From a virus (Duplodnaviria; Heunggongvirae; Uroviricota; Caudoviricetes): a stretch of 34,066 nt of DNA. Positions 4,578 through 26,555 of the stretch are shown here, piece by piece. Position numbers and translations under genes: made by a program. The notes beneath the pieces were generated by a model. It was not told the origin of the DNA, made no database searches, and saw only the letters and a list, made by a program, of their open reading frames with translations. Each line of letters starts with the position of its first letter. The first letter of the stretch is position 1. Location: IMG/VR virus record IMGVR_UViG_2541047909_000004, positions 1 through 34,066 of that record; one strand, written 5' to 3'.

Positions 4578-7500
4578 TCAACGAATACTGATGCCGGAAG
4601 CGGCTTTTTTGGTCACAATCACCGTACAGTCGGTGATATTACCTGCCCACTGATTGCCTTTATGGAAAACCTTAAACTCCAGAGTGACGCTTCCCCTGCC
4701 ACTCGGCATATCAATAACCGCACTGTAGCTACCGGGAATGGCCCCTTTAGTTTCTCTGGATGCGATTAATACACCGTTTTTGCGAACTTCAAAACCATAA
4801 CCCGTGTATCTTGTACCTCCCGGGTTATTACCACTTCCCGGATCGCTATACGCTATTCCGTTAAAGATAATGGGCGGAATAATGATTTGACGGTCAAAGT
4901 TATGATCATCGCTGATGGTGACTGTAACCGTCCCGTTTGGTGTTTCCGTGTTACCCCACGTACCAGCCTGTTTCGGGAATGATTTGGATACAGCTTTAAC
5001 GAAGTCACCTCTGACCTGAGTCGCCTCCAGCATGCCCTTAATCGTACAGTTTTCATTTACCGTGACATTGTTGAGCGTCCCGGCGTTCGCATTCACTCTG
5101 CCACTGATATCCGCATTTTTAGCGGTCAGCTTTCCGTCTGATGTCAGGGAAAATGCCGGTGGATTTCCACCACTGGTAATGGTCGGGGCCGTCAGGCGCT
5201 TCAGGAACACGTCGTTCATAAATATCTGATTGCCCTGCGCCACAAACATCGGCGTTTCATTCCCGTTTGCCGGGTCAATAAACGCGATACGGTTAGCGGC
5301 AACCAGAAACTGGCTCAGCTTGCCTTCTTCCGTGTCCTCCATGCTGAGGCCAATACCCGCGACATAATGTTTGCCGTCTTTGGTCTGCTCAATTTTGACG
5401 CCCCACATGGCATTCCATTTATCGTTGGCGTCCTTCCACTCTTTCGAAAACTCCTCCAGTTTGCTGGCGTTATCCTCCGTCAGCTCGACTTTTTCCAGCA
5501 GCTCCTTGCCGAGATGGGATTCAGTTATCTGGCCTTTGAAAAAATCCAGGTAACCTTCCGCATCATCGCTCGCCCGACCGACAGCCTCCACGAATATCGA
5601 TTTGCCGACGGTGTTCACACTGCGAACGTAAAAATAATAATCATGGCCCGGTTTGATATTGATACTGGCGGCTATCCAGTACAGCGCCGTGCCAAGATAG
5701 CGGGCTGTGGTTTCAACCTGCCTGATATCCGCAATCCGCTTTTCCGAGAACCAGAACTCAAACTGTACAGTCGGATCATAAACCGCAAGATGCGGCGTGG
5801 CGGTTATCTGAAAATAGCCCGGCGTCAGCTCAATCCTCGACGGTGCTGCCGGTGCGGCAATCCGGAACGATACCGACGCCGGATCGCCCTGCTGCCCCCA
5901 CGCATTTACCGCCCGGACTGTCAGTCTGTAGTTCCCCAGCGCCAGTTGCGTGAAGCGGTATGTGGTTTCCGTCGTCCGGGCCGTGCTGACCAGCCGCTCA
6001 CTGCCGTCATCCGCTGTTACGGTCAGACGGAGCAGGAAGCTCACGCCCTTCACCACCTTCGGCGTGTCCCAGCGCGCCAGCACCTGATATTCCCCGCTGT
6101 CTGCGGTGACTTCGGCGGTCAGGTGCTGCACCGCTGGCGGCGTGACACCATTCACCGTGCCGCTCTGGTCGCCGTCAAAGTGCGCCCCGTTATCCACGAT
6201 GGCTTCTTTTTCCGGTACATGCTGCACGGCAGTGATGGCATACGTGCCGTCATCGTTCTCACGGATACTCACACAGCGGAACAGGCGCTGACGCAACGTC
6301 GGCAGCTTCAGCCCCCACACACTGTATTCTGCAACGCCGTCAGGAACCCGGTTCACTTTCACCTTAAGTCCGTCGGTGACGGACTGAACCTCCACGCTGA
6401 CCGGATTACCACTTCCGTCAACCAGGCTTATCAGCGTGGTACCGGAGGATGGCAGCGTGATTTCACGGTCGAGCGTCAGCGTCCGGGTCTGGCTGTTCAC
6501 CGCCAGCACGCGACCACCGGTGCTGATACCGGCATAGTCATCATCGCAGATTTCAATGACATCGCCCGGTACATGGCGAAGCCCTTCAGCACCCACGCTG
6601 AAATCCACGGTCTGCGTCTCCAGCAGTTCAGTTTTAATCAGCCACAGCCCGGCGCGGTGTGCCTGCCCCCGGCTGGTACAGCCAAAAGCATCCATCTTCG
6701 TGACGCTACGACCGTAACGGGCAATGGCCTGCGTGTCCTCCACAAGCTCTGTCGCCGTCTCCCAGCCGTTATTCGGGTCAATCCAGTTCACCTCAACGGC
6801 ATTATGGCGGTCCTTCAGGGCGCTGAAGCTGTAGCGGAACGGCGCACCATCATCCGGCATCACCACATTACTGCGGTTATAGGTCCACACCTTATCCGAC
6901 GGTCGGTCCTGCACGAACGTCAGCGTCTGCCCGTTCCATACCGGCATACAGCGCATCGCCGAGCAGAAATCACTGAGCACATCCCACGCCTTGCGCTGTG
7001 TGGTCAGGTACGCATTACAGGTGATGCGCGGCTCCGTGCCGCCAAAACCGTCCGGCACCGACTGGTCGCAGTAGTGGCCGATGACATACAGCGCCCATTT
7101 GTCCACATCCGCCGCACCAAGACGTTTCCCCATGCCGTAGCGCGGATGGGTCAGCATATCCCACAGACACCAGGCCATGTTGTTGCTGTATGCTGGCTTA
7201 AACGTTCCGTCCCAGATACCGCTGTATTGCCGCGTCTGCGGGTTATAGTTCGACGGCACCTGCAGAATACGCCCGCGCAGATGATAATTACGGCTCACCT
7301 GCTGGCTGCCGAACTGCTCCGAGTCCACCTGCACGCCGACCAGTGCCGTGTTCGGGTAGCACTGTTTCACATCGATGATTTCGGTGTATGACGACCAGAG
7401 CGTTTTGTTCTGCAGCTGGTCTGTGGTGCTGTCCGGCGTCATCCTGCGCATCCGTATATTGAACGGGCGCGGCGGCAGGTTACCCACCACCACCGAGGCC

Positions 7501-8183
7501 AGATACTGCGAGGTGGTTTTGCCCTTAATGGTGATGTCTTTTTCCGTCACCCAGCCACCATTACGCTGTATCTGAACCAGCAGGCGGACTTCCGACGGAT
7601 TCCTGTCCCCCTTTGAGGTGGTTTCCACCAGTGCCTGCACGCCGAAGGTAAAACGCAGTCGGTCAATGTTTGCCGACGTGATGGTCCGGGTGATCGGCGT
7701 GTCGTATTTCACTTCCGTACCCAGCACCGTCTCGGAGCCGGAGGATTCAAATCCCTCCGGCGGTGTCTGCTCCTGCTCACCGGCCCGGAACACCACCGTG
7801 ACGCCGGAGATGTTGGTATTCCCCTCTTCGTCACGCATGTTCTGCATGATGATGCGACGGCGGCGGTAAGCCGGGTCCGCCAGATTCTGCGGATCTTCAT
7901 CCGGCAGGCGACGCAGGGTCATCTGCGGATTCACCTCATGCTTGGGTTTGACATATCCCGGCGTAAATTCAGAGGTGGAGCCGCCACGGGAGCGGATAAC
8001 CTCACCGGAAACAATCGGCGAAACGTACAGCGCCATGTTTACCAGTCCCGGAATTTGTGAGAGATAGACTTTCTCCGTGGTGAAGGGATAGCTCTCACGG
8101 AAAAAGAGACGCAGAAACAGCGGATCAAACTTAAATTTCTGCTCATTTGCCGCCAGCAGCTGGGCGGTTGTGTACATCGACAT
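4578..8183 (-). CDS. In-frame fusion of major capsid protein E N-terminus (aa 1-120) to tail tip/host specificity protein J (lacking ~45 N-terminal aa)
   Basis: Translation starts [30 protein letters not shown]... (lambda E N-terminus) and switches at ...[10 protein letters not shown]|[19 protein letters not shown]... to lambda J sequence; junction near 7823; the displayed ORF start at 8210 is a non-ATG artefact. Confidence 0.8.
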
Positions 8184-8976: not shown

Positions 8977-9900
8977 TCGCCCTCCTGAGAGACGGGATTT
9001 ACGTGCATCCAGTGCATCACGCATGACGGTGATCGCATCGGTGCTGTTAACAAGTTCATCAGCCAGTCCGGCATCAATGGCCTCCTGACCGCTGTACACT
9101 GCAGCCTCGGTATCCAGCACAGCCTGCACGGACAGGCCGGTATATGCCGACACCTTCTGCGCAAACATCTGGCGGGTTGCATCCATCCGGGACTGCAGTG
9201 TCTCCCGGACGTCATCCGGAAGATGGCTGTAGGGGTTGCCATCCACCTTATGGCTGCCGCTGTAAATCAGCGTGATTTCCACGCCCTGTTTCTCCAGCGC
9301 AGCACCGTAATTACTGTGAGCCATCATGACGCCGATGGAGCCTGTCCGGGCGGTCTGCGTGACCAGACGCCGGGAGGCGGCGCTGGCAAGCAGCTGACCT
9401 GCACTGCAGTTCATGTCGTTGGCCAGCGCCCATACCGGTTTTATGTCACGCACACGGGCGATGATGTCAGCGCAGTCAAATGTCCCTGCCACCATTCCGC
9501 CGGGCGTGTCCATATCGAGCAGAATGCCGTCCACCATCGGGTCACTGGCAGCCTGTTGCAGACGGGCGATAATGCCGTTGTAACCGGTCATCCCCGAATA
9601 AGGCTGCAGCGCCCGCGTCCGGCTGACCAGCGTACCGGACACCGGCAGCACGGCGATGCCGTTCATGACCTGATAACTGCGGGCCTGTCGTGGTCCGTCA
9701 CCATCACCGACTAACGCCAGCGTCGCGGGTGCCTCTCCGGCAGTCAGGCTGTCGCCGGACACCGCATCCGTCAGGCGGCTGATCCCAAGCTGGCCTGCAA
9801 GCGCACAAAAGAAAACCCGCGCATAAGCGGGTTCAAGCATCAGCGGCTCATTAAAGGCCATGCTGGCAATATGCGGGAGATTACGCAGCTCTGCTGTCAC
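8581..9900 (-). CDS. C: Head protease / minor capsid protein C (S49 peptidase family), GTG start
   Basis: VTAELRNLPHIASMAFNEPLMLEPAYARVFF... matches lambda gpC; GTG at 9900 preceded by AGGAGGAGA. Confidence 0.85.
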   Translation of the reverse strand: MTAELRNLPHIASMAFNEPLMLEPAYARVFFCALAGQLGISRLTDAVSGDSLTAGEAPATLALVGDGDGPRQARSYQVMNGIAVLPVSGTLVSRTRALQPYSGMTGYNGIIARLQQAASDPMVDGILLDMDTPGGMVAGTFDCADIIARVRDIKPVWALANDMNCSAGQLLASAASRRLVTQTARTGSIGVMMAHSNYGAALEKQGVEITLIYSGSHKVDGNPYSHLPDDVRETLQSRMDATRQMFAQKVSAYTGLSVQAVLDTEAAVYSGQEAIDAGLADELVNSTDAITVMRDALDARKSRLSGGRMTKETQSTTVSATASQADVTDVVPATEGENASAAQPDVNAQITAAVAAENSRIMGILNCEEAHGREEQARVLAETPGMTVETARRILAAAPQSAQARSDTALDRLMQGAPAPLAAGNPASDAVNDLLNTPV

Positions 9901-10663
9901 TCTTCTCCTCCTCTGTTGATTGTCGCAGCCCGGATTCAAATGCCGCAGCCGCCCAGGCGGGCGGTTTAAGACCAGCCGCACGGCGCTCCATCGTTTCACG
10001 GACCTGCTGGGCAAAAATTTCCTGATAGTCGTCACCGCGTTTCGCGCACTCTTTCTCGTAGGTGCTCAGTCCGGCTTCTATCAGCATCACCGCTTCCTGA
10101 ACTTCTTTCAGACCATCGATGGCCATACGACCGGAGCCTATCCAGTCGCAGTTCCCCCAGGCACTGCGGGCTTCCTGAAAGCTGAAGCGCGCTTTTGAAG
10201 GTAACGTCACCACGCGGCGAACGATGGCCTCTTCCAGCCAGCACAGAAACATCTGGCTCGCCTGACGGGATGCGACGAATTTTCGCCGTCCCATAAAGTG
10301 CGCCCACGACTCGTTCGCGCTGGCCCGTGCCGTGGAGTAGCTCATCTGGGCGTAATTCCGGGAAAGCTGCTCATACGAGACACCCAGCCCGGCAGCGATA
10401 TACCGCAGCAGTGACTGCTCAAACACGGAGTAGCCGTTATCCGTGTCCTGAGCCGTCTGCAGGTTCAGTGAGTCACCCGGCATCAGGTGCGGCACTTTTG
10501 CGCCTCCCAGCCGGACCGGTGCGGCGGAGTAATACGCGGCAATTTCACCAATCCAGCCGGTCAGCCTTTCCCGCTGCTCCTGACTGTTCGCGCCCAGAAT
10601 AAAATCCATCGCTGACTGCGTATCCAGCTCACTTTCAATGGTGGCGGCATACATCGCCTTTAT
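9881..10663 (-). pseudogene. B: Portal protein B, C-terminal fragment (about residues 273-533)
   Basis: ...KAMYAATIESELDTQSAMDFILGANSQEQRERLTGW...EEEKSDSRAA matches the lambda portal C-terminus; homology stops at about 10663 where unrelated AT-rich DNA begins. Confidence 0.85.
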
Positions 10664-11098
10664 GAAAAGACAGGAAAAAATAAAATTTAAAAACAGTACA
10701 TTACGAATGCTCAGACCTATCGTTTAAAGGAGTCGCAATACACACTGCAATACACGATTATTTATAAGATGAGCGGCATCCGTCATAAAGCTGGTGGATG
10801 CTTTTTCTATGCATATATGCACAGTTTTAGTGGGCGTTAATGTCGATATAGGGATCCCCATATCGAGATTGGATACCTGGCTTTTTTCCGGTTAACCTTT
10901 AATCAGGCTGGTGGGCTTTACCTGTTTTGTATGAGTGGTCATCATGACCATGTCATAACAAAAACCCCATATTCGTGGTTTTTCTGTGTCGGGCTATTCT
11001 GTCGTTGCTGTGCTGATTTGACTGGTGGGCTGAATCATCATTACGGCGATGCAGCTATGTAGACGTTCCGGCCTCCTCAAATTGAGGATTGTGGAAGA

Positions 11099-11225
11099 AT
11101 CAATGGGTTAGTCTTACTTTCCCGACATCCCCCAATGGGGGTTTTCGAAACAATCAATAGCTTAGGCTTACTTCCCCGATTTCCTGCATTGCAGGTTTTC
11201 GAAATAATCAATGGGTTAGGCCATC
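11099..11225. repeat. Two and a third tandem 54-bp units, each containing a 5-bp-stem hairpin followed by GTTTTCGAAA
   Basis: Unit 1 (11099-11152) and unit 2 (11153-11206) align over their length, with stems CCCCCAATGGGGG versus CCTGCATTGCAGG; partial third unit at 11207. Confidence 0.7.
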
Positions 11226-11469
11226 GTGCAATTTTGCACTTTGCCAGCCAGCGCAATGTCGCGTTATCAGTCCTCAGATGTGAGGGATGTAGCCAGCTTT
11301 TCCCCCAGTGGGGGATATCCAGCACCGACGGCTTAACTGTGCGTGCCAGCACAAGGTAGCCTTGAACTACTTACTGCATCCCATCTTACAGGCCGTGCCT
11401 TCCTGCTTAACTTTTTGCAATGCAACAAGTCAGCCAGCGCAATTTTGCGTTATCGGGAATATCAGCAAG

Positions 11470-11751
11470 TTACCGCCGCAATCGTTCCGGCTTCTTCCAC
11501 TGGTAAGTATTTTTCGCGCTCTCCCTCCGTTGTTGAGAACGGCGACGATATGCCAGCAACTCAAGGACTCTTGTTCGTATGTTGCGCATATCCACGCCGT
11601 TAAGCTCAATACCGTCACGGCGCATCACCTCAGCCACTACACGCACATAATTATCTGCGGTCACGCTGTCCGGCTGCGTGGCCTGTTCGTCATGCTGCTT
11701 GCTGATTCCACAAGCACGGCGGATTAATCGCAGTATTTCGGATTCAGTCAT
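11470..11751 (-). CDS. Small basic protein (93 aa) downstream of terS-like gene, function unknown
   Basis: ORF starting 11 nt after the terS-like stop; no clear SD; Arg-rich C-terminus. Confidence 0.45.
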   Translation of the reverse strand: MTESEILRLIRRACGISKQHDEQATQPDSVTADNYVRVVAEVMRRDGIELNGVDMRNIRTRVLELLAYRRRSQQRRESAKNTYQWKKPERLRR

Positions 11752-11762
11752 AGCGTACTACG

Positions 11763-12305
11763 TTACTTATCTTTATTCGGCTGCAACTTATCCGGTACGT
11801 TTCCGGCAGTTTCCATCAGATAATCGGACAGCATCAGCGGTATGTTTTCGTCAAGTTTTGCGCATGCGTTACAGGCTCTGATAACTTCTTTTTTCAGTCC
11901 ATCCAGCATAGACGGCTTCATGTCGGGAAACTTCCTTGTCATGGCAAGCGGCAGGCTGTCCATGATTGAAGAAATCTGACTCGCCAATTTTGAAAGCACG
12001 TATATACAAAACGCTGTATCAATAACGTCGCCGCGTTCGCGCTCGTTTTTAAGCTCCTGCGCCTCTGCCTGTGCTGTCAGCAATCTGATCCTGACTCGTA
12101 GGAGTTCATCATCATCAATCTCGCCTTTGTCGTCTGTAATCTGGTTAATTGCATTGCTAACCCGATTGTCTATTACGCTGGCAACATCATAAAACGCCTC
12201 GCGGCCTTTACGTTCAACGGGAGTCACTCCCCACTTGTCGAACGCTGTCGCACTTACACGGCAGCTTTGCGCCATGTTTTTTTTGTTCATCAGGTGCGAT
12301 TTCAT
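11763..12305 (-). CDS. Terminase small subunit homologue (Nu1-like), second copy in the window
   Basis: ...LLTAQAEAQELKNERERGDVIDTAFCIYVLSKLASQISSIMDSLPLAMTRKFPDM... parallels Nu1 ...LTRAQADAQELKNARDSAEVVETAFCTFVLSRIAGEIASILDGIPLSVQRRFPEL...; start uncertain (ATG at 12305, 12290 or 12275). Confidence 0.75.
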   Translation of the reverse strand: MKSHLMNKKNMAQSCRVSATAFDKWGVTPVERKGREAFYDVASVIDNRVSNAINQITDDKGEIDDDELLRVRIRLLTAQAEAQELKNERERGDVIDTAFCIYVLSKLASQISSIMDSLPLAMTRKFPDMKPSMLDGLKKEVIRACNACAKLDENIPLMLSDYLMETAGNVPDKLQPNKDK

Positions 12306-12438
12306 CAATATCCCCACTTAAGTAATGTTTCAGGTTGGTGTATTGGCTTTATCTTTTCCTTTTTATTCATAGAGATAGAGCGAGCAACAAAACCACCACC
12401 AGCACCCGAAAAAGGCTCATAAATAGCGAAAACCCGCG

Positions 12439-12450
12439 AGGTCGCCGCCC
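12439..12450. other. Second cosN-like site (AGGTCGCCGCCC) within a ~65-bp block near-identical to the prophage cos
   Basis: 12418-12482 matches 18063-18127 except GTAGCCTACCGG versus GTAACCTGTCGG; sequence between cosN and the adjacent terS gene is unrelated between the two copies. Confidence 0.8.
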
Positions 12451-12506
12451 CGTAGCCTACCGGATCGCCGGAAAGGACCCGCCAGCCAGAACGGGCCCTA
12501 ATTTCA

Positions 12507-12890
12507 TCAACCAATCAACTTATAGCGACCATCCCGTGCATTGCGACGTACACGCTCAATCTTGAGGCATAGCGCCGCATCTGGCTTTTTTGGGACAGGT
12601 ACGCGGCAATATTCAGAAGATCGAGGAATATTGTTTATCCAGTCGATCACTTCACTTAAATACCAGGCCTTACGCCCTTCCGTAACCTGTACGCGTTCGG
12701 GGAACTCTCCGCGAGCCTCAAGGTTTAGCAATGTGCGACGGCTAAGGGTAGTAAGTTCCATCACCTGATTCATATCAACAAGGCGTTCACTTAAACGCAT
12801 TTTGTCAGCAATAGCCTTTAATTCCTCTACTGCTGGATCCGGATACATCATTTCGGCAATTGGCTTAAGGTCATTGTAATGATTCTGCAT
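12507..12890 (-). CDS. AlpA-like helix-turn-helix regulator (127 aa)
   Basis: Central motif ...LTTLSRRTLLNLEARGEFPERVQVTEGRKAWYLSEVIDWI... resembles the AlpA/excisionase-type HTH; SD AAGGGGGAT before the ATG at 12890. Confidence 0.6.
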   Translation of the reverse strand: MQNHYNDLKPIAEMMYPDPAVEELKAIADKMRLSERLVDMNQVMELTTLSRRTLLNLEARGEFPERVQVTEGRKAWYLSEVIDWINNIPRSSEYCRVPVPKKPDAALCLKIERVRRNARDGRYKLIG

Positions 12891-12901
12891 TGTATCCCCC
12901 T

Positions 12902-13243
12902 TTACACACGAGCCAGCGGCTGAACAGAAATACCTGAGCCAACAAACGCGGCAACCTTTGCCGACAGTTCTTTTACAGACTCAGGCCAGTTCAGAGCATC
13001 AACATTTAAAACACCTGTCTTATAAACCTGTGCCTGTGTTTTTTTCGCTGTGTCGATTTGTACAGCGGAAACATAAACCGCTTTACCTACGCTCGAACCA
13101 TCCCATACCACCAGTGCACCTGTTGCATCTTCCTGCATCAGTGGCGTAAATGCAGGAATTACCCCTTTATTAGCTGAAAATATCCCCAGCGTAGTCACCA
13201 GTGCTTCAGTGCCAGCCATGAGTTCAGTGTAATGAGTAGCCAT
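12902..13243 (-). CDS. Head decoration protein homologue (gpD-like, diverged)
   Basis: ...ALVVWDGSSVGKAVYVSAVQIDTAKKTQAQVYKTGVLNVDALNWPESV... parallels lambda D ...[47 protein letters not shown]...; SD AAGGGGGAG. Confidence 0.7.
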   Translation of the reverse strand: MATHYTELMAGTEALVTTLGIFSANKGVIPAFTPLMQEDATGALVVWDGSSVGKAVYVSAVQIDTAKKTQAQVYKTGVLNVDALNWPESVKELSAKVAAFVGSGISVQPLARV

Positions 13244-13252
13244 TGCTCCCCC

Positions 13253-14299
13253 TTAGCCAATGCGAACGGTAACAAAACGATTGATGCGGGCCGGTATTGG
13301 CTGTGGTGCTGAATGTGTCTGCACATATTCAATAGCCGGATCACCAGGCACAATATAGTTTTTCGGTGCAAGTTCGGCTTTAGTCAGCCCCATTCGGATT
13401 AGCTCCGGATCCTGAATACCGCCATAGGCGACAATCCCCTGAAGAGCCGTATTGCCAAGCACCATCAAATCAGGATCAAGGAAATGTTTTTCTGTTCCGT
13501 CCTCGTCGGTATAACGCCCGCTGTAAACAACAATCGCAACATCGCCCATATACCCTTTAAAACTCACCGAATCACCAAGGTCTTTAAGGGCCGTTTCCAG
13601 TTCGGAATTAGAACCACGACGGGTATCCAAAGCCTCTTTTATCGCTCTGAATGAACGGTATTTCTTCCATACATTACCACCCATAATGATGATATTAGTG
13701 ACGCCCTCACTAAATTCTGCGTAGCTCTCAATATCATCATTTGGATCAAAAGTTTCTTTATCCTTACCTGACCACTCAGTACCGCCAGACTGAGTGATGA
13801 TATTTTGTGGTTTTATATTCCAGTCCAGCTCATAACGTTCAATACCATCGCCCTCAATGATATTTTTCCCCGTTGTGATTGCCTGAACAGCAAGCCATTC
13901 AATACGTGCACGAATAGCTTTAGCCTGATTTACAATCGCCTGTTTAACTTTAATATTACGCGCCCCAAAAGCATTGTATTGCTCAGGTGACACACCAGCA
14001 GGGCGCACAGCTAACTTATTTGGATCAATGCTGCTTTTCGGCTTCATATAACCTGGACGAATTGTTTTTGATTCGTATCCCTCATCTCGTGAAACTTTAC
14101 TGCCCACCATAGGAGAGCAAAACGCCGCGATCGGGATATTTGGATCGTCGATCGTATCAAGAATAATGTCTCTCGATTCAAACATTACCGAGCGAGTGAA
14201 AAACAAACTGGTAAACAACGCATTTAATTTTTTTTGCACATCTTCAGCATTAGCCACCTGCACAAGCTGTGTAGGCGAATATAAATCAACCATACTCAT
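13253..14299 (-). CDS. Major capsid protein homologue (gpE-like, diverged)
   Basis: MSMVDLYSPTQL... start aligns with lambda [11 protein letters not shown]; shared motifs NIITQSGGTEWS, LDTRRGSNSELETA, GDVAIVVYSG; the upstream extension of the ORF to 14380 is probably not translated. Confidence 0.75.
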   Translation of the reverse strand: MSMVDLYSPTQLVQVANAEDVQKKLNALFTSLFFTRSVMFESRDIILDTIDDPNIPIAAFCSPMVGSKVSRDEGYESKTIRPGYMKPKSSIDPNKLAVRPAGVSPEQYNAFGARNIKVKQAIVNQAKAIRARIEWLAVQAITTGKNIIEGDGIERYELDWNIKPQNIITQSGGTEWSGKDKETFDPNDDIESYAEFSEGVTNIIIMGGNVWKKYRSFRAIKEALDTRRGSNSELETALKDLGDSVSFKGYMGDVAIVVYSGRYTDEDGTEKHFLDPDLMVLGNTALQGIVAYGGIQDPELIRMGLTKAELAPKNYIVPGDPAIEYVQTHSAPQPIPARINRFVTVRIG

Positions 14300-14510
14300 C
14301 CTCTTTACATTCATTACAAATAATTGTGAATATATTCTATTACCGATGTCTGCTATGCGAATACATGCAATCAAGTGCAATGTTGTATAAAATATGCCGT
14401 AACAACTTCAGTGCTGATAATTCGTGTTAATGTATTTACTTCCTTTGGTCGGGATTTATGTAGCATGCCGGAAAATCTATTTTTTTCCGGCATCTTTTTG
14501 TTTGCAGAAT

Positions 14511-14787
14511 TTAAAACGGTATATTATCGCCGTACGGATCATCATTCCCCGACTGTTGTTTTGCCCTGTTCAGTGCGTCAGTGGCCTGCCCCTGCTGGCC
14601 TTTTTTGCCGCCCGGTCGCGCCGTTCGCGCACTGATTACGCTGTCTGCGATAACCTGCCAGCCCCGCCGCGTTTCGCCGTTCTGGCCTGTCCACTGGCTT
14701 ACCTGCATGTTACCCGCCACGCTCACCAGTTCGCCTTTGTGGTGTTTTGCCAGTGCGTCGGCCTGTCTGCCAAACGCCAGGACGGAT
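14511..14787 (-). pseudogene. ssb: Single-stranded DNA-binding protein (SSB) C-terminal fragment
   Basis: ...GELVSVAGNMQVSQWTGQNGETRRGWQVIADSV...DDPYGDNIPF with the SSB-type acidic tail; N-terminal OB-fold half missing, cut at the junction with B. Confidence 0.65.
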
Positions 14788-17360
<2,573 letters not shown>

Positions 17361-17386
<26 letters not shown>

Positions 17387-17906
17387 TCAGCAACCCCGGT
17401 ATCAGTTCATCCAGCGCGGCTGCTTTGTTCATGGCTTTGATGATATCCCGTTTCAGGAAATCAACATGTCGGTTTTCCAGTTCCGGAAAACGCCGCTGCA
17501 CCGACAGGGGGATCCCGTCGAGAATACTGGCAATTTCACCTGCGATCCGCGACAGCACGAAAGTACAGAATGCGGTTTCCACCACTTCAGCGGAGTCTCT
17601 GGCATTCTTCAGTTCCTGTGCGTCGGCCTGCGCACGCGTAAGTCGATGGCGTTCGTACTCAATAGTTCCTGGCTGGAGATCTGCCTCGCTGGCCTGCCGC
17701 AGTTCTTCAACCTCCCGGCGCAGCTTTTCGTTCTCAATTTCAGCATCCCTTTCGGCATACCATTTTATGACGGCGGCAGAGTCATAAAGCACCTCATTAC
17801 CCTTGCCACCGCCTCGCAGAACGGGCATTCCCTGTTCCTGCCAGTTCTGAATGGTACGGATACTCGCACCGAAAATGTCAGCCAGCTGCTTTTTGTTGAC
17901 TTCCAT
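17361..17906 (-). CDS. Nu1: Terminase small subunit Nu1
   Basis: 181 aa, MEVNKKQLADIFGASIRTIQNWQEQGMPVLRGGGKGNEVLYD... as in lambda. Confidence 0.9.
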
Positions 17907-18083: not shown

Positions 18084-18095
18084 AGGTCGCCGCCC
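18084..18095. other. cosN cohesive-end site of the prophage (within lambda-like cos)
   Basis: AGGTCGCCGCCC (reverse complement of GGGCGGCGACCT) flanked by lambda left-end and right-end sequence, about 180 bp upstream of Nu1. Confidence 0.85.
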
Positions 18096-18850: not shown

Positions 18851-19144
18851 ATGAAAAAAATGTTGTTTTCTGCCGCTCTGGCAATGCTTATTACAGGATG
18901 TGCTCAACAGACGTTTACTGTTGGAAACAAACCGACAGCAGTAACACCAAAGGAAACCATCACCCATCATTTCTTCGTTTCGGGAATTGGACAGGAGAAA
19001 ACTGTTGATGCAGCCAAAATTTGTGGCGGCGCAGAAAATGTTGTTAAAACAGAAACCCAGCAAACATTCGTAAATGGATTTCTCGGTTTTATTACTTTAG
19101 GCATTTATACTCCGCTGGAAGCGCGTGTGTATTGCTCACAATAA
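18851..19144 (+). CDS. bor: Bor lipoprotein (serum resistance)
   Basis: MKKMLFSAALAMLITGCAQQ... lipobox LITGC; 97 aa; opposite strand to late genes as in lambda. Confidence 0.9.
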   Translation: MKKMLFSAALAMLITGCAQQTFTVGNKPTAVTPKETITHHFFVSGIGQEKTVDAAKICGGAENVVKTETQQTFVNGFLGFITLGIYTPLEARVYCSQ

Positions 19145-20934: not shown

Positions 20935-22017
20935 ATGAAAAAATTAACAGTGGCAATTTCTGCTGTAGCTGCATCAGTACTGATGGCGATGTCTGCTCAG
21001 GCAGCTGAAATTTATAATAAAGACAGTAACAAGCTGGATCTATACGGGAAAGTTAATGCCAAGCACTACTTCTCCTCTAATGATGCAGATGATGGTGATA
21101 CTACTTATGCCCGTCTTGGCTTCAAAGGTGAAACCCAAATCAACGATCAACTGACTGGTTTCGGTCAGTGGGAATATGAATTCAAAGGCAACCGTGCTGA
21201 ATCTCAAGGTTCTTCCAAAGACAAAACCCGTCTTGCATTTGCAGGCCTGAAATTTGGTGATTACGGCTCCATCGATTACGGCCGTAACTACGGTGTAGCA
21301 TACGACATCGGTGCGTGGACTGACGTTCTGCCAGAATTCGGTGGTGATACCTGGACCCAAACAGATGTGTTCATGACTGGTCGCACTACTGGTGTTGCAA
21401 CTTATCGTAACAACGACTTCTTTGGTCTGGTCGATGGCCTGAACTTTGCTGCTCAGTATCAGGGTAAAAATGACCGCACTGACGTAACTGAAGCCAATGG
21501 TGATGGTTTCGGTTTCTCCACTACTTATGAGTATGAAGGATTCGGCGTGGGTGCAACCTATGCTAAATCAGATCGCACTGACGGTCAGGTCGCCTATGGT
21601 AAGAGCAAATTCAATGCCTCCGGCAAAAATGCGGAAGTATGGGCTGCAGGCCTGAAATATGATGCGAACAATATCTATCTGGCTACCACATATTCTGAAA
21701 CTCAGAATATGACCGTTTTTGGTAATAACCATATTGCAAACAAAGCACAAAACTTTGAAGCAGTAGCACAATATCAGTTTGACTTCGGTCTGCGCCCATC
21801 TGTTGCTTACCTTCAGTCAAAAGGTAAAGACCTTGGTGTTCATGGTGACCGAGACTTAGTCAAGTATGTCGATGTCGGTGCTACTTACTACTTTAATAAA
21901 AACATGTCTACTTTTGTTGATTACAAAATCAACTTAATTGACGATAGTAAGTTTACCAAAACAGCTGGTATTGATACCGACGACATCGTCGCTGTAGGTC
22001 TGGTTTATCAGTTCTAA
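20935..22017 (+). CDS. nmpC: Outer membrane porin (OmpC/OmpF family; NmpC/Lc-like phage porin)
   Basis: 360 aa with signal peptide [38 protein letters not shown] start of mature porin and C-terminal ...VGLVYQF. Confidence 0.85.
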
Positions 22018-25133: not shown

Positions 25134-25627
25134 TAAGCCCCCACGTAATTCCCTGACAGATACCACTCTTCACCCGATACAGCGCGCTTGCTGCTTTTCC
25201 GTAAACACCGCTCACGACGCGCAAGAAAATTGTTTCGCTCTTGCTGGGAGTGGCTTTCACGGAATGCCGCCATCCACACCGTTGCAGCACGACGGTATAA
25301 GCCCCTGGACTCCAGTTCTTCCGCCTGGCGGGTCAGGCACAAAATCACCCGGGGATCGTTAGTGCCGACATAGAAATTGCGCACAGGTCTGGATTCACGA
25401 ACTGGTTGCGGTTCCGGCTCCTGCGGTATCTCAGTCAGCCGCGGGAAATGTCTGCGTGTATCCCCTTCACAACGGTGAGCCACACGCCCACTCTGACGTA
25501 ACTTGCTTGCTGACTGCAGAACGCGCTGTCGTGAGTAACCTGCAAAAGCATCCGCAATGTCTCCGGAAGTACACCCCGGATGGGCTTCAATGAATTTCTG
25601 AACGTCATTCAAAAGACTCATGATCAC
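25133..25627 (-). CDS. PerC-like regulator (164 aa; CPS-53 YfdN-like)
   Basis: C-terminal ...LESRGLYRRAATVWMAAF... PerC-type motif; assignment by recall. Confidence 0.55.
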   Translation of the reverse strand: MIMSLLNDVQKFIEAHPGCTSGDIADAFAGYSRQRVLQSASKLRQSGRVAHRCEGDTRRHFPRLTEIPQEPEPQPVRESRPVRNFYVGTNDPRVILCLTRQAEELESRGLYRRAATVWMAAFRESHSQQERNNFLARRERCLRKSSKRAVSGEEWYLSGNYVGA

Positions 25628-25992
25628 CCCCTGAATCCTGCCGGGATCTGGCTGTAGTCCACGTTGTCGTAACTGGCTTTGAAGTACGGGTCTTCGCGTT
25701 TTTCGGTGTACGTGCTGACGGACGGCGATAAGCGCAGGGAAAGCTCATCCCATTTTTCCCGCAGCTTCGACGGGCTGAGCACGTTACGGCACCAGAACGG
25801 ATCGCGACTGACGCGGCTGTACATCTCGCAGATTTGTTTATGAGTACGACCATCCTGCACACACATCAGGCGAATTTCGTTTGCCCAGGCTATCCAGTTC
25901 GGTTCTTTGGGACGAACCACCTCGCCGTCACATTCGGCGGCATGCTCGTACAGGGCGATGATTTTTTTCCAGAGCCACTGTGCGCAGGTCAA
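25624..25992 (-). CDS. Probable replication-initiator (O-like) C-terminal remnant (122 aa; CPS-53 YfdO-like)
   Basis: Lies just downstream of an iteron-like array; non-ATG (TTG) start; identification by recall and context. Confidence 0.45.
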   Translation of the reverse strand: MTCAQWLWKKIIALYEHAAECDGEVVRPKEPNWIAWANEIRLMCVQDGRTHKQICEMYSRVSRDPFWCRNVLSPSKLREKWDELSLRLSPSVSTYTEKREDPYFKASYDNVDYSQIPAGFRG

Positions 25993-26109
25993 ATCATCCT
26001 GCGTCCCCCACTGGCGCTTTTTAGGGCTGAATACAACCGCATCAGGATGGCGAGTTAAAAAATCCTGTTCAGCCGTCTGCGTGTCCGGTTGCGAAGCGTC
26101 CGGACGAGA

Positions 26110-26275
26110 AGTTTTTTTATCTGACGGATCATGTTTTGATTTTACTGACGGATCCCCACCAGATTCTGACGGGTGAAAACCCGCTTTTTTGCCAGATTTC
26201 GACGCATCAAATTTTGACGGGTCAGATTTTGATGCGTCAGATTTTGACGGGTCAGAATCTGACAGTTGAGAAAAT
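26110..26275. repeat. Iteron-like array: several direct repeats of TGACGGGTCAGA / TGATGCGTCAGATTT-type units next to an AT-rich stretch (candidate replication origin)
   Basis: About 18-bp periodic units CAGATTTTGACGGGT / CAGATTTTGATGCG between 26200 and 26265 plus CTGACGGATC repeated at 26121 and 26145. Confidence 0.6.
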
Positions 26276-26555
26276 GCCGCTGCCTGAAGCTTCGCAACGT
26301 TAAGCTGATAAACATTCGACGCATTGCGGTTAATCCATCATTTGGATTGGGGTAAATATCAGGACGCAGTTCATGAGGGGTCACGGACCAGTTTCCCAAC
26401 TCACAAAGTTGTAAAACCCGTTCTGACGGGACTTGATTGTTAATTACCCAATTAGCGACGGATTGAGTGGACTTAAAACCAAAGTGACGGGCTACTTCAG
26501 ATAAAGATTTTCCCGCAGCTTTTACTGCTTTCTCTGTGTAGTTTTGAGATGACAT
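26142..26555 (-). CDS. Cro/YdaS-like HTH protein whose ORF extends through the iteron array
   Basis: N-terminal ...LSEVARHFGFKSTQSVANWVINNQVPSERVLQLCELGNWSVTPHELRPDIYP... Cro/YdaS-type HTH; C-terminal tail (LTRQNLTHQNLTRQNL) is encoded by the repeats; SD GAGGAGAAAGG. Confidence 0.65.
   Translation of the reverse strand: MSSQNYTEKAVKAAGKSLSEVARHFGFKSTQSVANWVINNQVPSERVLQLCELGNWSVTPHELRPDIYPNPNDGLTAMRRMFISLTLRSFRQRHFLNCQILTRQNLTHQNLTRQNLMRRNLAKKRVFTRQNLVGIRQ

Follow-up and report, generated by a model that had tools for sequence, protein, structure and literature searches.

The 34,066-bp stretch analysed here (IMG/VR record IMGVR_UViG_2541047909_000004; hereafter the window) is nearly an entire lambda-like prophage carried on the minus strand, and it matches Escherichia coli isolate AF58 (NZ_OZ547038.1; blood culture, UK). 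In AF58 the prophage lies between ompT/envY and the intD integrase gene that adjoins a tRNA-Arg gene, which is the DLP12 site. The late operon runs in the order Nu1 (17361-17906), A, W, an N-terminal fragment of the portal gene B, a block of about 4.1 kb (10661-14787), a C-terminal portal fragment, C, D and a fusion of E to J. The block contains the 3' half of a single-stranded DNA-binding protein gene (ssb), homologues of the major capsid and head decoration proteins, an AlpA-like regulator, a second cos site, a second small terminase gene (terS), a gene for a small basic protein and a noncoding arm (Table 1). All of its open reading frames (ORFs) are on the minus strand, as are the flanking portal, W, A and Nu1 genes, so the block is co-oriented with the late operon. 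An earlier note on this DNA, made from the sequence alone, had reported a portal gene split by 4.1 kb of foreign DNA. All the features that it listed are present, with minor corrections to the coordinates. We conclude with high confidence that the block represents the late zone, left stranded by a later deletion, of a helper-embedded phage-inducible chromosomal island (HE-PICI) belonging to site group B:Phage_portal_2:241. Elements of this kind have already been published, and the observation, although correct, is not a novel one.

The prophage has no intact portal gene, as the earlier note had held: Pfam recognizes two separate fragments, and RefSeq annotates both as pseudogenes. Between the fragments 114 positions of the Phage_portal_2 profile are absent, which agrees with the loss of about 114 codons first proposed; at the DNA level the loss is 359 bp, or about 120 codons. 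The split falls at Pfam position ~235-241, in agreement with the site B:Phage_portal_2:241. On the C-terminal side portal homology stops at 10660/10661, and the ORF (9881-10663) runs slightly past this point. For comparison we used 5,426 complete E. coli genomes and 50,697 phage records. About 3,100 of the genomes have a portal gene that is uninterrupted here, and they depart from the window exactly at 10660/10661, right after the attachment core. Could the block be a normal variant of lambdoid head regions, in which the portal gene is naturally split? We found no point in support of this explanation. None of the phage records matches the block beyond 65-80 bp at cos, and the uninterrupted genomes also speak against it, so that its probability is negligible. 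Since the block matches phage genomes at cos only, it is foreign to ordinary lambdoid head regions. The observation that had been named in advance as fatal to a foreign origin, namely that the block is an ordinary part of intact phages, was therefore looked for and did not appear.

Table 1. Features of the block and of the portal fragments on either side of it, in window coordinates.
Feature	Position	Strand	Evidence
Portal gene B, C-terminal fragment	9881..10660	-	Pfam Phage_portal_2 positions 235-354; RefSeq portal pseudogene
att identity block, attR of B:Phage_portal_2:241	10653..10660	-	AAGGCGAT (ATCGCCTT on the plus strand)
Noncoding arm, 809 bp	10661..11469	-	no annotated gene; hairpin-rich; fold z-score -5.4
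Doubled TGTATTGC arm motif (cgTGTATTGCagtgTGTATTGCga), HE-PICI-specific attP arm motif	10735..10754	-	motif search; published motif (PMC10111431)
Basic protein, 93 aa	11470..11751	-	pI 10.55; PHROG 1561 (unknown function) E=1e-55
Satellite small terminase terS, 180 aa	11763..12305	-	Phage_Nu1 E=3e-24 (profile positions 80-162 only); PHROG 57 terS E=5e-51
Satellite cos, cosQ-proximal and cosN block common with helper	12417..12482	-	exact cosN GGGCGGCGACCT at 12439-12450
Late-zone AlpA-like helix-turn-helix protein, 127 aa	12507..12890	-	Pfam Phage_AlpA E=1.3e-8; PHROG 2790 (excisionase/transcriptional regulator) E=2e-48
Satellite head decoration homologue, 113 aa, gpD/SHP family	12902..13243	-	HDPD E=4e-15
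Satellite major capsid homologue, 346 aa, lambda gpE family	13253..14293	-	Phage_cap_E E=2.9e-41
Satellite ssb 3' half, end of replication zone	14511..14787	-	Pfam SSB positions 50-101 of 104
Deletion junction, mid-ssb/mid-portal	14787..14788	.	L001 alignment; TA microhomology at joint
Portal gene B, N-terminal fragment, 158 codons	14788..15261	-	Pfam Phage_portal_2 positions 2-120, E=7e-32; RefSeq portal pseudogene

HE-PICIs were defined by Tommasini, Mageeney & Williams (NAR Genom Bioinform 2023; PMC10111431). The integrases of these islands form a clade with 14 target sites, which are spread over nine late genes of the lambda type. The islands are co-oriented with the late operon and bring no replacement sequence, and the late gene stays broken until the satellite excises (PMC10111431). 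For the site group B:Phage_portal_2:241 (here B:241) the published identity block is 'aaggcgat' (PMC10111431). The uninterrupted portal gene of E. coli CFT073 contains the corresponding AAGGCGAT once, at codon 272. In the window, the reverse complement of 10640-10780 is the published attR of Eco10269.11 and Eco1037.11, letter for letter (PMC10111431 supplement). The location inside a structural gene of the helper, which had at first been regarded as an oddity, is thus a precise published attR, and the portal gene is the proper attachment site of the satellite. The attL is absent from the window through deletion. It is found in E. coli A0 34/86, where the core ATCGCCTT is duplicated at both ends of a complete element (attL copy at L001 22833-22840; coordinates in the A0 34/86 composite locus, in strain A36 and in strain 48 are given on L001, L002 and L005, respectively). 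The right junction in A0 34/86 is the published attL, again letter for letter (PMC10111431). The doubled motif tgTGTATTGCantgTGTATTGCa, which is characteristic of HE-PICIs, has its attR-side copy in the window and its attL-side copy in the sibling only (L001 22683-22702).

In A0 34/86 all 4,124 bases of the block recur at 100% identity, as the downstream third of a complete satellite that measures 10,843 bp core to core. The gene order of this satellite is tyrosine integrase (WP_000963723.1; L001 21391-22632), a small helix-turn-helix (HTH) gene at the AlpA position (L001 21132-21389), BRO-N, Icd-like, DUF4222, primase and a complete 423-bp ssb, followed by the late module. This module consists of capsid, decoration, AlpA-like, cos, terS, the 93-aa ORF and the arm, exactly as in the window. 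The two portal fragments of A0 34/86 (783 and 834 bp) together make one portal gene, and the head and tail genes of the helper are otherwise complete. Aligned with this composite, the window shows one contiguous gap of 7,062 bp, which covers the 5' half of ssb, the primase, the Bro zone, AlpA, the integrase, attL and 359 bp of the portal gene; beyond the gap, the N-terminal portal fragment of the window aligns from L001 23188 onward. The integrase and the adjacent int-proximal AlpA gene, which is separate from the AlpA-like gene of the late zone, are thereby gone from the window and present in A0 34/86. The window copy retains 4,127 of the 10,843 bp, i.e., the Late zone and the final 277 bp of the Replication zone, whereas A0 34/86 and EC93 have all four zones, in the order Integration, Bro, Replication and Late. 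The comparison with related E. coli genomes suggested by the earlier note has delivered both an intact sibling of the element and the uninterrupted B gene. In contrast to that note, which saw a replacement rather than a clean insertion, the alignment indicates that the element first integrated cleanly and that 7,062 bp were then deleted in one event.

These data also bear on a one-step origin, in which illegitimate or homologous recombination moved a piece of a chromosomal cos-type satellite into B in place of about 114 codons, in a single event and without the whole element ever having been there. Such an event would account for the joint absence of integrase, replication genes and portal codons from the window, and related late modules are indeed known in satellites at chromosomal sites (A36 by nfeF and EcCICFT073 by phoQ). 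However, the left junction is a precise integrase crossover with its arm motif, 62 genomes hold the whole element at the same site, and the window equals the intact configuration minus a single contiguous segment. We regard a one-step replacement as very unlikely. The earlier description of the block as a recombinational fragment is right in that a fragment lacking integrase and replication genes was found, but the precise attR junction does not fit random recombination.

The joint at 14787/14788 is whole in one of the 5,426 genomes, AF58 itself. Its uniqueness would be expected if it were an assembly error and the true locus held a complete satellite. Against this, the source record is a closed chromosome, and the same prophage has decayed independently elsewhere, by the E-J fusion and by truncation of O. 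The joint also looks like a simple deletion with 2 bp of microhomology, and there is no spanning repeat that could have collapsed the assembly. An assembly artefact is thus highly improbable.

The stranded HE-PICI can be placed beside named members of its group. Eco1037.11.B_Phage_portal_2_241 and Eco10269.11 share with the window the target gene, the codon, AAGGCGAT, the attR and the doubled TGTATTGC (PMC10111431). Eco1037.11 is 10,843 bp long, equal to the A0 34/86 element, and its attL is identical to the one in that sibling (PMC10111431). The published helpers of the B:241 group are at tRNA-Arg and icd sites, as are helpers here (PMC10111431 supplement). Compared with the published members, the window is without attL, int, AlpA, the Bro zone, the primase and 359 bp of the portal gene. 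The prototype Eco567.11capE, in gene E of an icd prophage, has the same lifestyle and the same four-zone organisation as the B:241 element, but it uses the site E:Phage_cap_E:80 and is reported without terS (PMC10111431). A relative in gene E of strain GN06489 has the same late module of capsid, decoration, HTH, terS and 93-aa genes.

We suggest the following course of events. A 10.8-kb satellite was integrated by its tyrosine integrase at the 8-bp AAGGCGAT, at about portal codon 272 of a lambdoid prophage. In the intact composite, late transcription of the helper may read into the co-oriented satellite, and its excision at AAGGCGAT by Int and AlpA would make the portal gene whole again; the restored attB joint would read ...ATTGTGAAGGCGATGTATGCC... 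The satellite primase would then replicate the excised DNA. The satellite TerS is predicted to bind its own cosB through a diverged N-terminal domain, while its conserved Nu1-like C-terminal half may recruit the helper large terminase gpA to cut the shared cosN. The satellite DNA would then be packaged into particles built by the helper. In the AF58 lineage, a single illegitimate deletion of 7,062 bp later took away everything between mid-ssb and the N-terminal portal fragment, part of which was lost together with the integrase and attL.

Some points weigh against this account. The arm motifs of HE-PICIs are doubled at 81 +/- 2 and 132 +/- 2 (PMC10111431), and here they lie 78-88 and 134-144 bp away from the centre of the core, the exact value varying with the point of reference, so that the match is approximate. 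Membership of the integrase clade is argued from att identity and from an element length shared with published members. The timing of excision and the restoration of the portal gene in the B:241 group are extrapolated from 11capE, which is in gene E and without terS. It is the sole HE-PICI member with induction data: its composite excises and replicates on induction, and the satellite excises at about 2 h, regenerating the late gene (PMC10111431). TerS-cosB specificity and recruitment of the large terminase (TerL) are suggested by domain conservation only.

Among the 5,426 E. coli genomes, the int-portal junction is whole in 62 and the attR junction in 59. Helpers of the satellite occupy three chromosomal sites, namely tRNA-Arg/intD (DLP12; AF58 and EC93, with different early regions), icd (A0 34/86) and a position beside torI near dsdA (strain 48). 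The satellite of strain 48 has a RepA-type helicase instead of the primase and late alleles like those of CFT073. The three helper sites and the one satellite with a different replication module argue for site-specific targeting, and a single inherited insertion is rejected as the cause of the recurrence. The satellite segment is 100% identical between AF58 (tRNA-Arg/intD) and A0 34/86 (icd), with the flanking helper late genes at only 98-99%, a pattern suggesting that the satellite has recently moved horizontally from one helper prophage to another. A related late module is also found in the HE-PICI in the capsid gene E of GN06489 and in satellites at chromosomal sites, i.e., strain A36 beside nfeF and EcCICFT073 beside phoQ. 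In strain A36 (L002 9908-22045), two integrase-bearing satellite-like elements are in tandem beside nfeF; in the element to which the related module (capsid, decoration, HTH, terS) belongs, ssb is frameshifted and a DUF927 primase-type protein is encoded.

The genes of the block agree with those expected of a satellite that exploits a lambda-type helper through its own cos and terS. This had been the proposal of the earlier note, and the HE-PICI match bears it out. The kinship of the E-like and D-like ORFs with capsid and decoration proteins is upheld by Pfam and by matches to protein sequences of the Protein Data Bank (PDB). The capsid homologue is full-length; its best structural match is 3bqw (E=1e-121), and it also matches the lambda gpE structure 7vi9 (E=9e-78). 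3bqw is a 351-aa 'putative capsid protein of prophage' of the same length as the CFT073 capsid protein. The capsid homologue is 42% identical to the helper E and 55% identical to the capsid homologue of EcCICFT073. The decoration homologue, likewise full-length, matches 1td0 and 1c5e, which are structures of phage-21 SHP/gpD (E=4e-16 to 8e-12), and is 39% identical to the helper D and 54% to the EcCICFT073 homologue. The truncated ssb, AlpA-like regulator, Nu1-like terS and small basic protein described before are each present by Pfam or PHROG matches and, for the last, by its pI. The 93-aa basic protein is a conserved last member of the late zone in E. coli PICIs and is 76% identical to the last ORF of EcCICFT073.

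The satellite TerS shares 37% identity with the Nu1 of the prophage across the full length. Its N-terminal, DNA-binding third is diverged and its C-terminal half is conserved, and the Pfam profile matches the C-terminal part alone. Against PDB sequences the protein had no meaningful match, neither to the Nu1 N-terminal domain nor to RppC. We also considered it as an Rpp protein and rejected this, since BLASTP against the 144-aa EcCICFT073 protein at the rppA position gave no match.

A second cos site had been claimed for the block, and the exact lambda cosN dodecamer GGGCGGCGACCT is indeed present twice in the window, in the satellite at 12439-12450 and in the prophage at 18084-18095, both on the minus strand. 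Each copy lies upstream of a terS gene. About 66 bp around cosN are 95% identical between the two sites, whereas cosB beyond, toward terS, diverges. On the chromosome the two co-oriented cos sites are only 5.6 kb apart, each with its own downstream terS and a differing cosB.

Possession of its own capsid, decoration and small terminase genes might suggest a capsid-forming PICI (cf-PICI), or a derivative of one, that builds its own small capsids and steals tails only. cf-PICIs resemble the element of the block in encoding their own capsid and terS, but they encode all proteins for capsid production and packaging (bioRxiv 10.1101/2022.09.08.507074), whereas no portal, protease, head-tail connector or large terminase gene is annotated in the intact 10.8-kb sibling. 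In addition, in the syntenic EcCICFT073, interference persisted when either the capsid or the decoration homologue was deleted, and this island is packaged in phage-sized capsids (PMC6092414, PMC6739421). The capsid-forming label given at first is therefore unsupported, and we attach hardly any probability to it. A cos-packaged satellite that encodes a homologue of the helper major capsid protein is also known in SaPIbov5, where it is named Ccm (PMC8569155). SaPIbov5 differs from the block in its Gram-positive lineage, its chromosomal location and the demonstrated role of Ccm, which redirects capsid size and shape.

EcCICFT073, the model Gram-negative PICI, depends on helpers of the lambda/phi80 type (PMC6092414, PMC6739421), and its late zone is syntenic with the block. 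Its end is ordered capsid homologue, decoration homologue, an unrelated ORF, cosN, the 144-aa protein at the rppA position, a second cosN and the 93-aa ORF. Both elements combine a lambda-type cosN with a foreign cosB and a gene for packaging specificity. They differ in that EcCICFT073 is chromosomal by phoQ and the block is inside a prophage, and the ORF between decoration and cos is unrelated in the two. Where EcCICFT073 has the 144-aa RppA, which binds the helper TerS, the block has the 180-aa Nu1-like TerS, without detectable similarity. Rpp redirects the helper TerS to the PICI cosB (PMC6092414, PMC6739421). TerS and Rpp could be alternative devices for redirecting packaging, which is a question at the level of the family. 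When the traits of Gram-negative PICIs are considered, the intact sibling shows a size within ~10-15 kb, unidirectional int-alpA-pri/rep genes, a helper-type cos and the absence of tail and lysis genes. It departs from them in having a Nu1-like TerS in place of an Rpp protein. It also departs from the rule of a chromosomal attC that is never used by prophages; its site inside a prophage gene is the defining feature of HE-PICIs.

The identification of the block as HE-PICI DNA resolves an odd locus into a published mechanism, in which one integrase clade uses prophage late genes as attachment sites and the portal gene of the helper is kept interrupted up to the excision of the satellite. Annotators who meet a split portal gene together with additional genes for capsid, decoration and terS should take it for a HE-PICI or the remnant of one, not for a chimeric head module or a cf-PICI. 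With attR as its one remaining att site and with integrase, int-proximal AlpA and primase all lost, the remnant in the window cannot excise or replicate. Restoration of the late gene by excision is likewise impossible in this copy, since attL and int are missing and 359 bp of the portal gene are lost. What is left of the satellite in the window is dead, and the prophage that holds it is cryptic. As a point of natural history, the two partners of such a composite decay together once one internal deletion has occurred, the satellite being stranded and the helper deprived of its portal for good, which agrees with a published comment on the truncated look of many HE-PICI helpers. The identity of the surviving genes suggests a recent deletion rather than upkeep by selection.

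We also considered that the stranded late module, though dead as a mobile element, is still active in trans. This idea is based on intact capsid, decoration, AlpA-like, TerS and 93-aa ORFs and a putatively functional cos, all of them 100% identical to their counterparts in a live satellite and still downstream of the late operon, and we consider it unlikely. If it were true, the remnant TerS could pair with the TerL of an infecting or induced lambdoid phage and divert packaging from the phage cos, a form of domesticated interference or defence. Alternatively, packaging could start from the chromosomal satellite cos and proceed toward terS, the portal remnant, the tail genes and ompT. Lambda docL-type one-cos packaging is a parallel for packaging from the satellite cos.

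The noncoding arm had been described as hairpin-rich, and its hairpins exceed chance: besides the fold z-score, there are 11 perfect hairpins with stems of at least 5 bp versus 3.2 +/- 1.7 in shuffles. Its att-proximal ~260 bp are kept among relatives and its middle is variable and hairpin-rich. Three tandem 54-nt units at 11068-11229 have a mutual identity of 65-72%. Each unit contains a hairpin of 5-6 bp in which the stems vary and the pairing is kept (TCCTC/GAGGA, CCCCC/GGGGG, CCTGC/GCAGG), and the flanks are conserved (..TCAATGGGTTAG..). Folded alone, the three units are not significantly more stable than shuffles (z=-1.5); the whole arm alone stands out. It is conceivable that in this array PICI ends have a so far undescribed RNA or protein-binding element. 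C4/isrK immunity RNAs have been reported for some HE-PICIs; Rfam found them neither in the sibling nor in the window element. No Rfam family matched the whole window at the gathering threshold, positions 10500-12600 when scanned by E-value, or the intact sibling element. The HE-PICI of strain 48 shares with the window the att-proximal 261 bp (95%) and the 93-aa gene (83%), and about 300 bp of unrelated sequence replace the hairpin-rich ~515 bp of the window. The middle of the arm is in this sense a variable cassette (window 10922-11435 versus L005 48634-48941). About 1,600 E. coli genomes have pieces of the arm, as a rule where PICI-like islands end.

Outside the block, the prophage has further losses. 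At 4578-8183(-) an in-frame fusion joins the first ~111 residues of E to J from the FNIII-A domain onward, under the RefSeq label gpJ. The E-J deletion removed the rest of E, the head-completion genes, all tail-shaft genes and the N-terminal part of J. In the immunity/replication region, at 25624-26555(-), the RefSeq gene for replication protein O is without its N-terminus and abuts a transcriptional regulator gene without its C-terminus; the truncated O is the third inactivating deletion in the prophage. The strand opposite to the phage genes carries cargo genes for the serum-survival lipoprotein iss, at 18851-19144(+), and for an OmpC-family porin between Q and the lysis cassette, at 20935-22017(+), both of which are also found in the helpers of EC93, A0 34/86 and CFT073.

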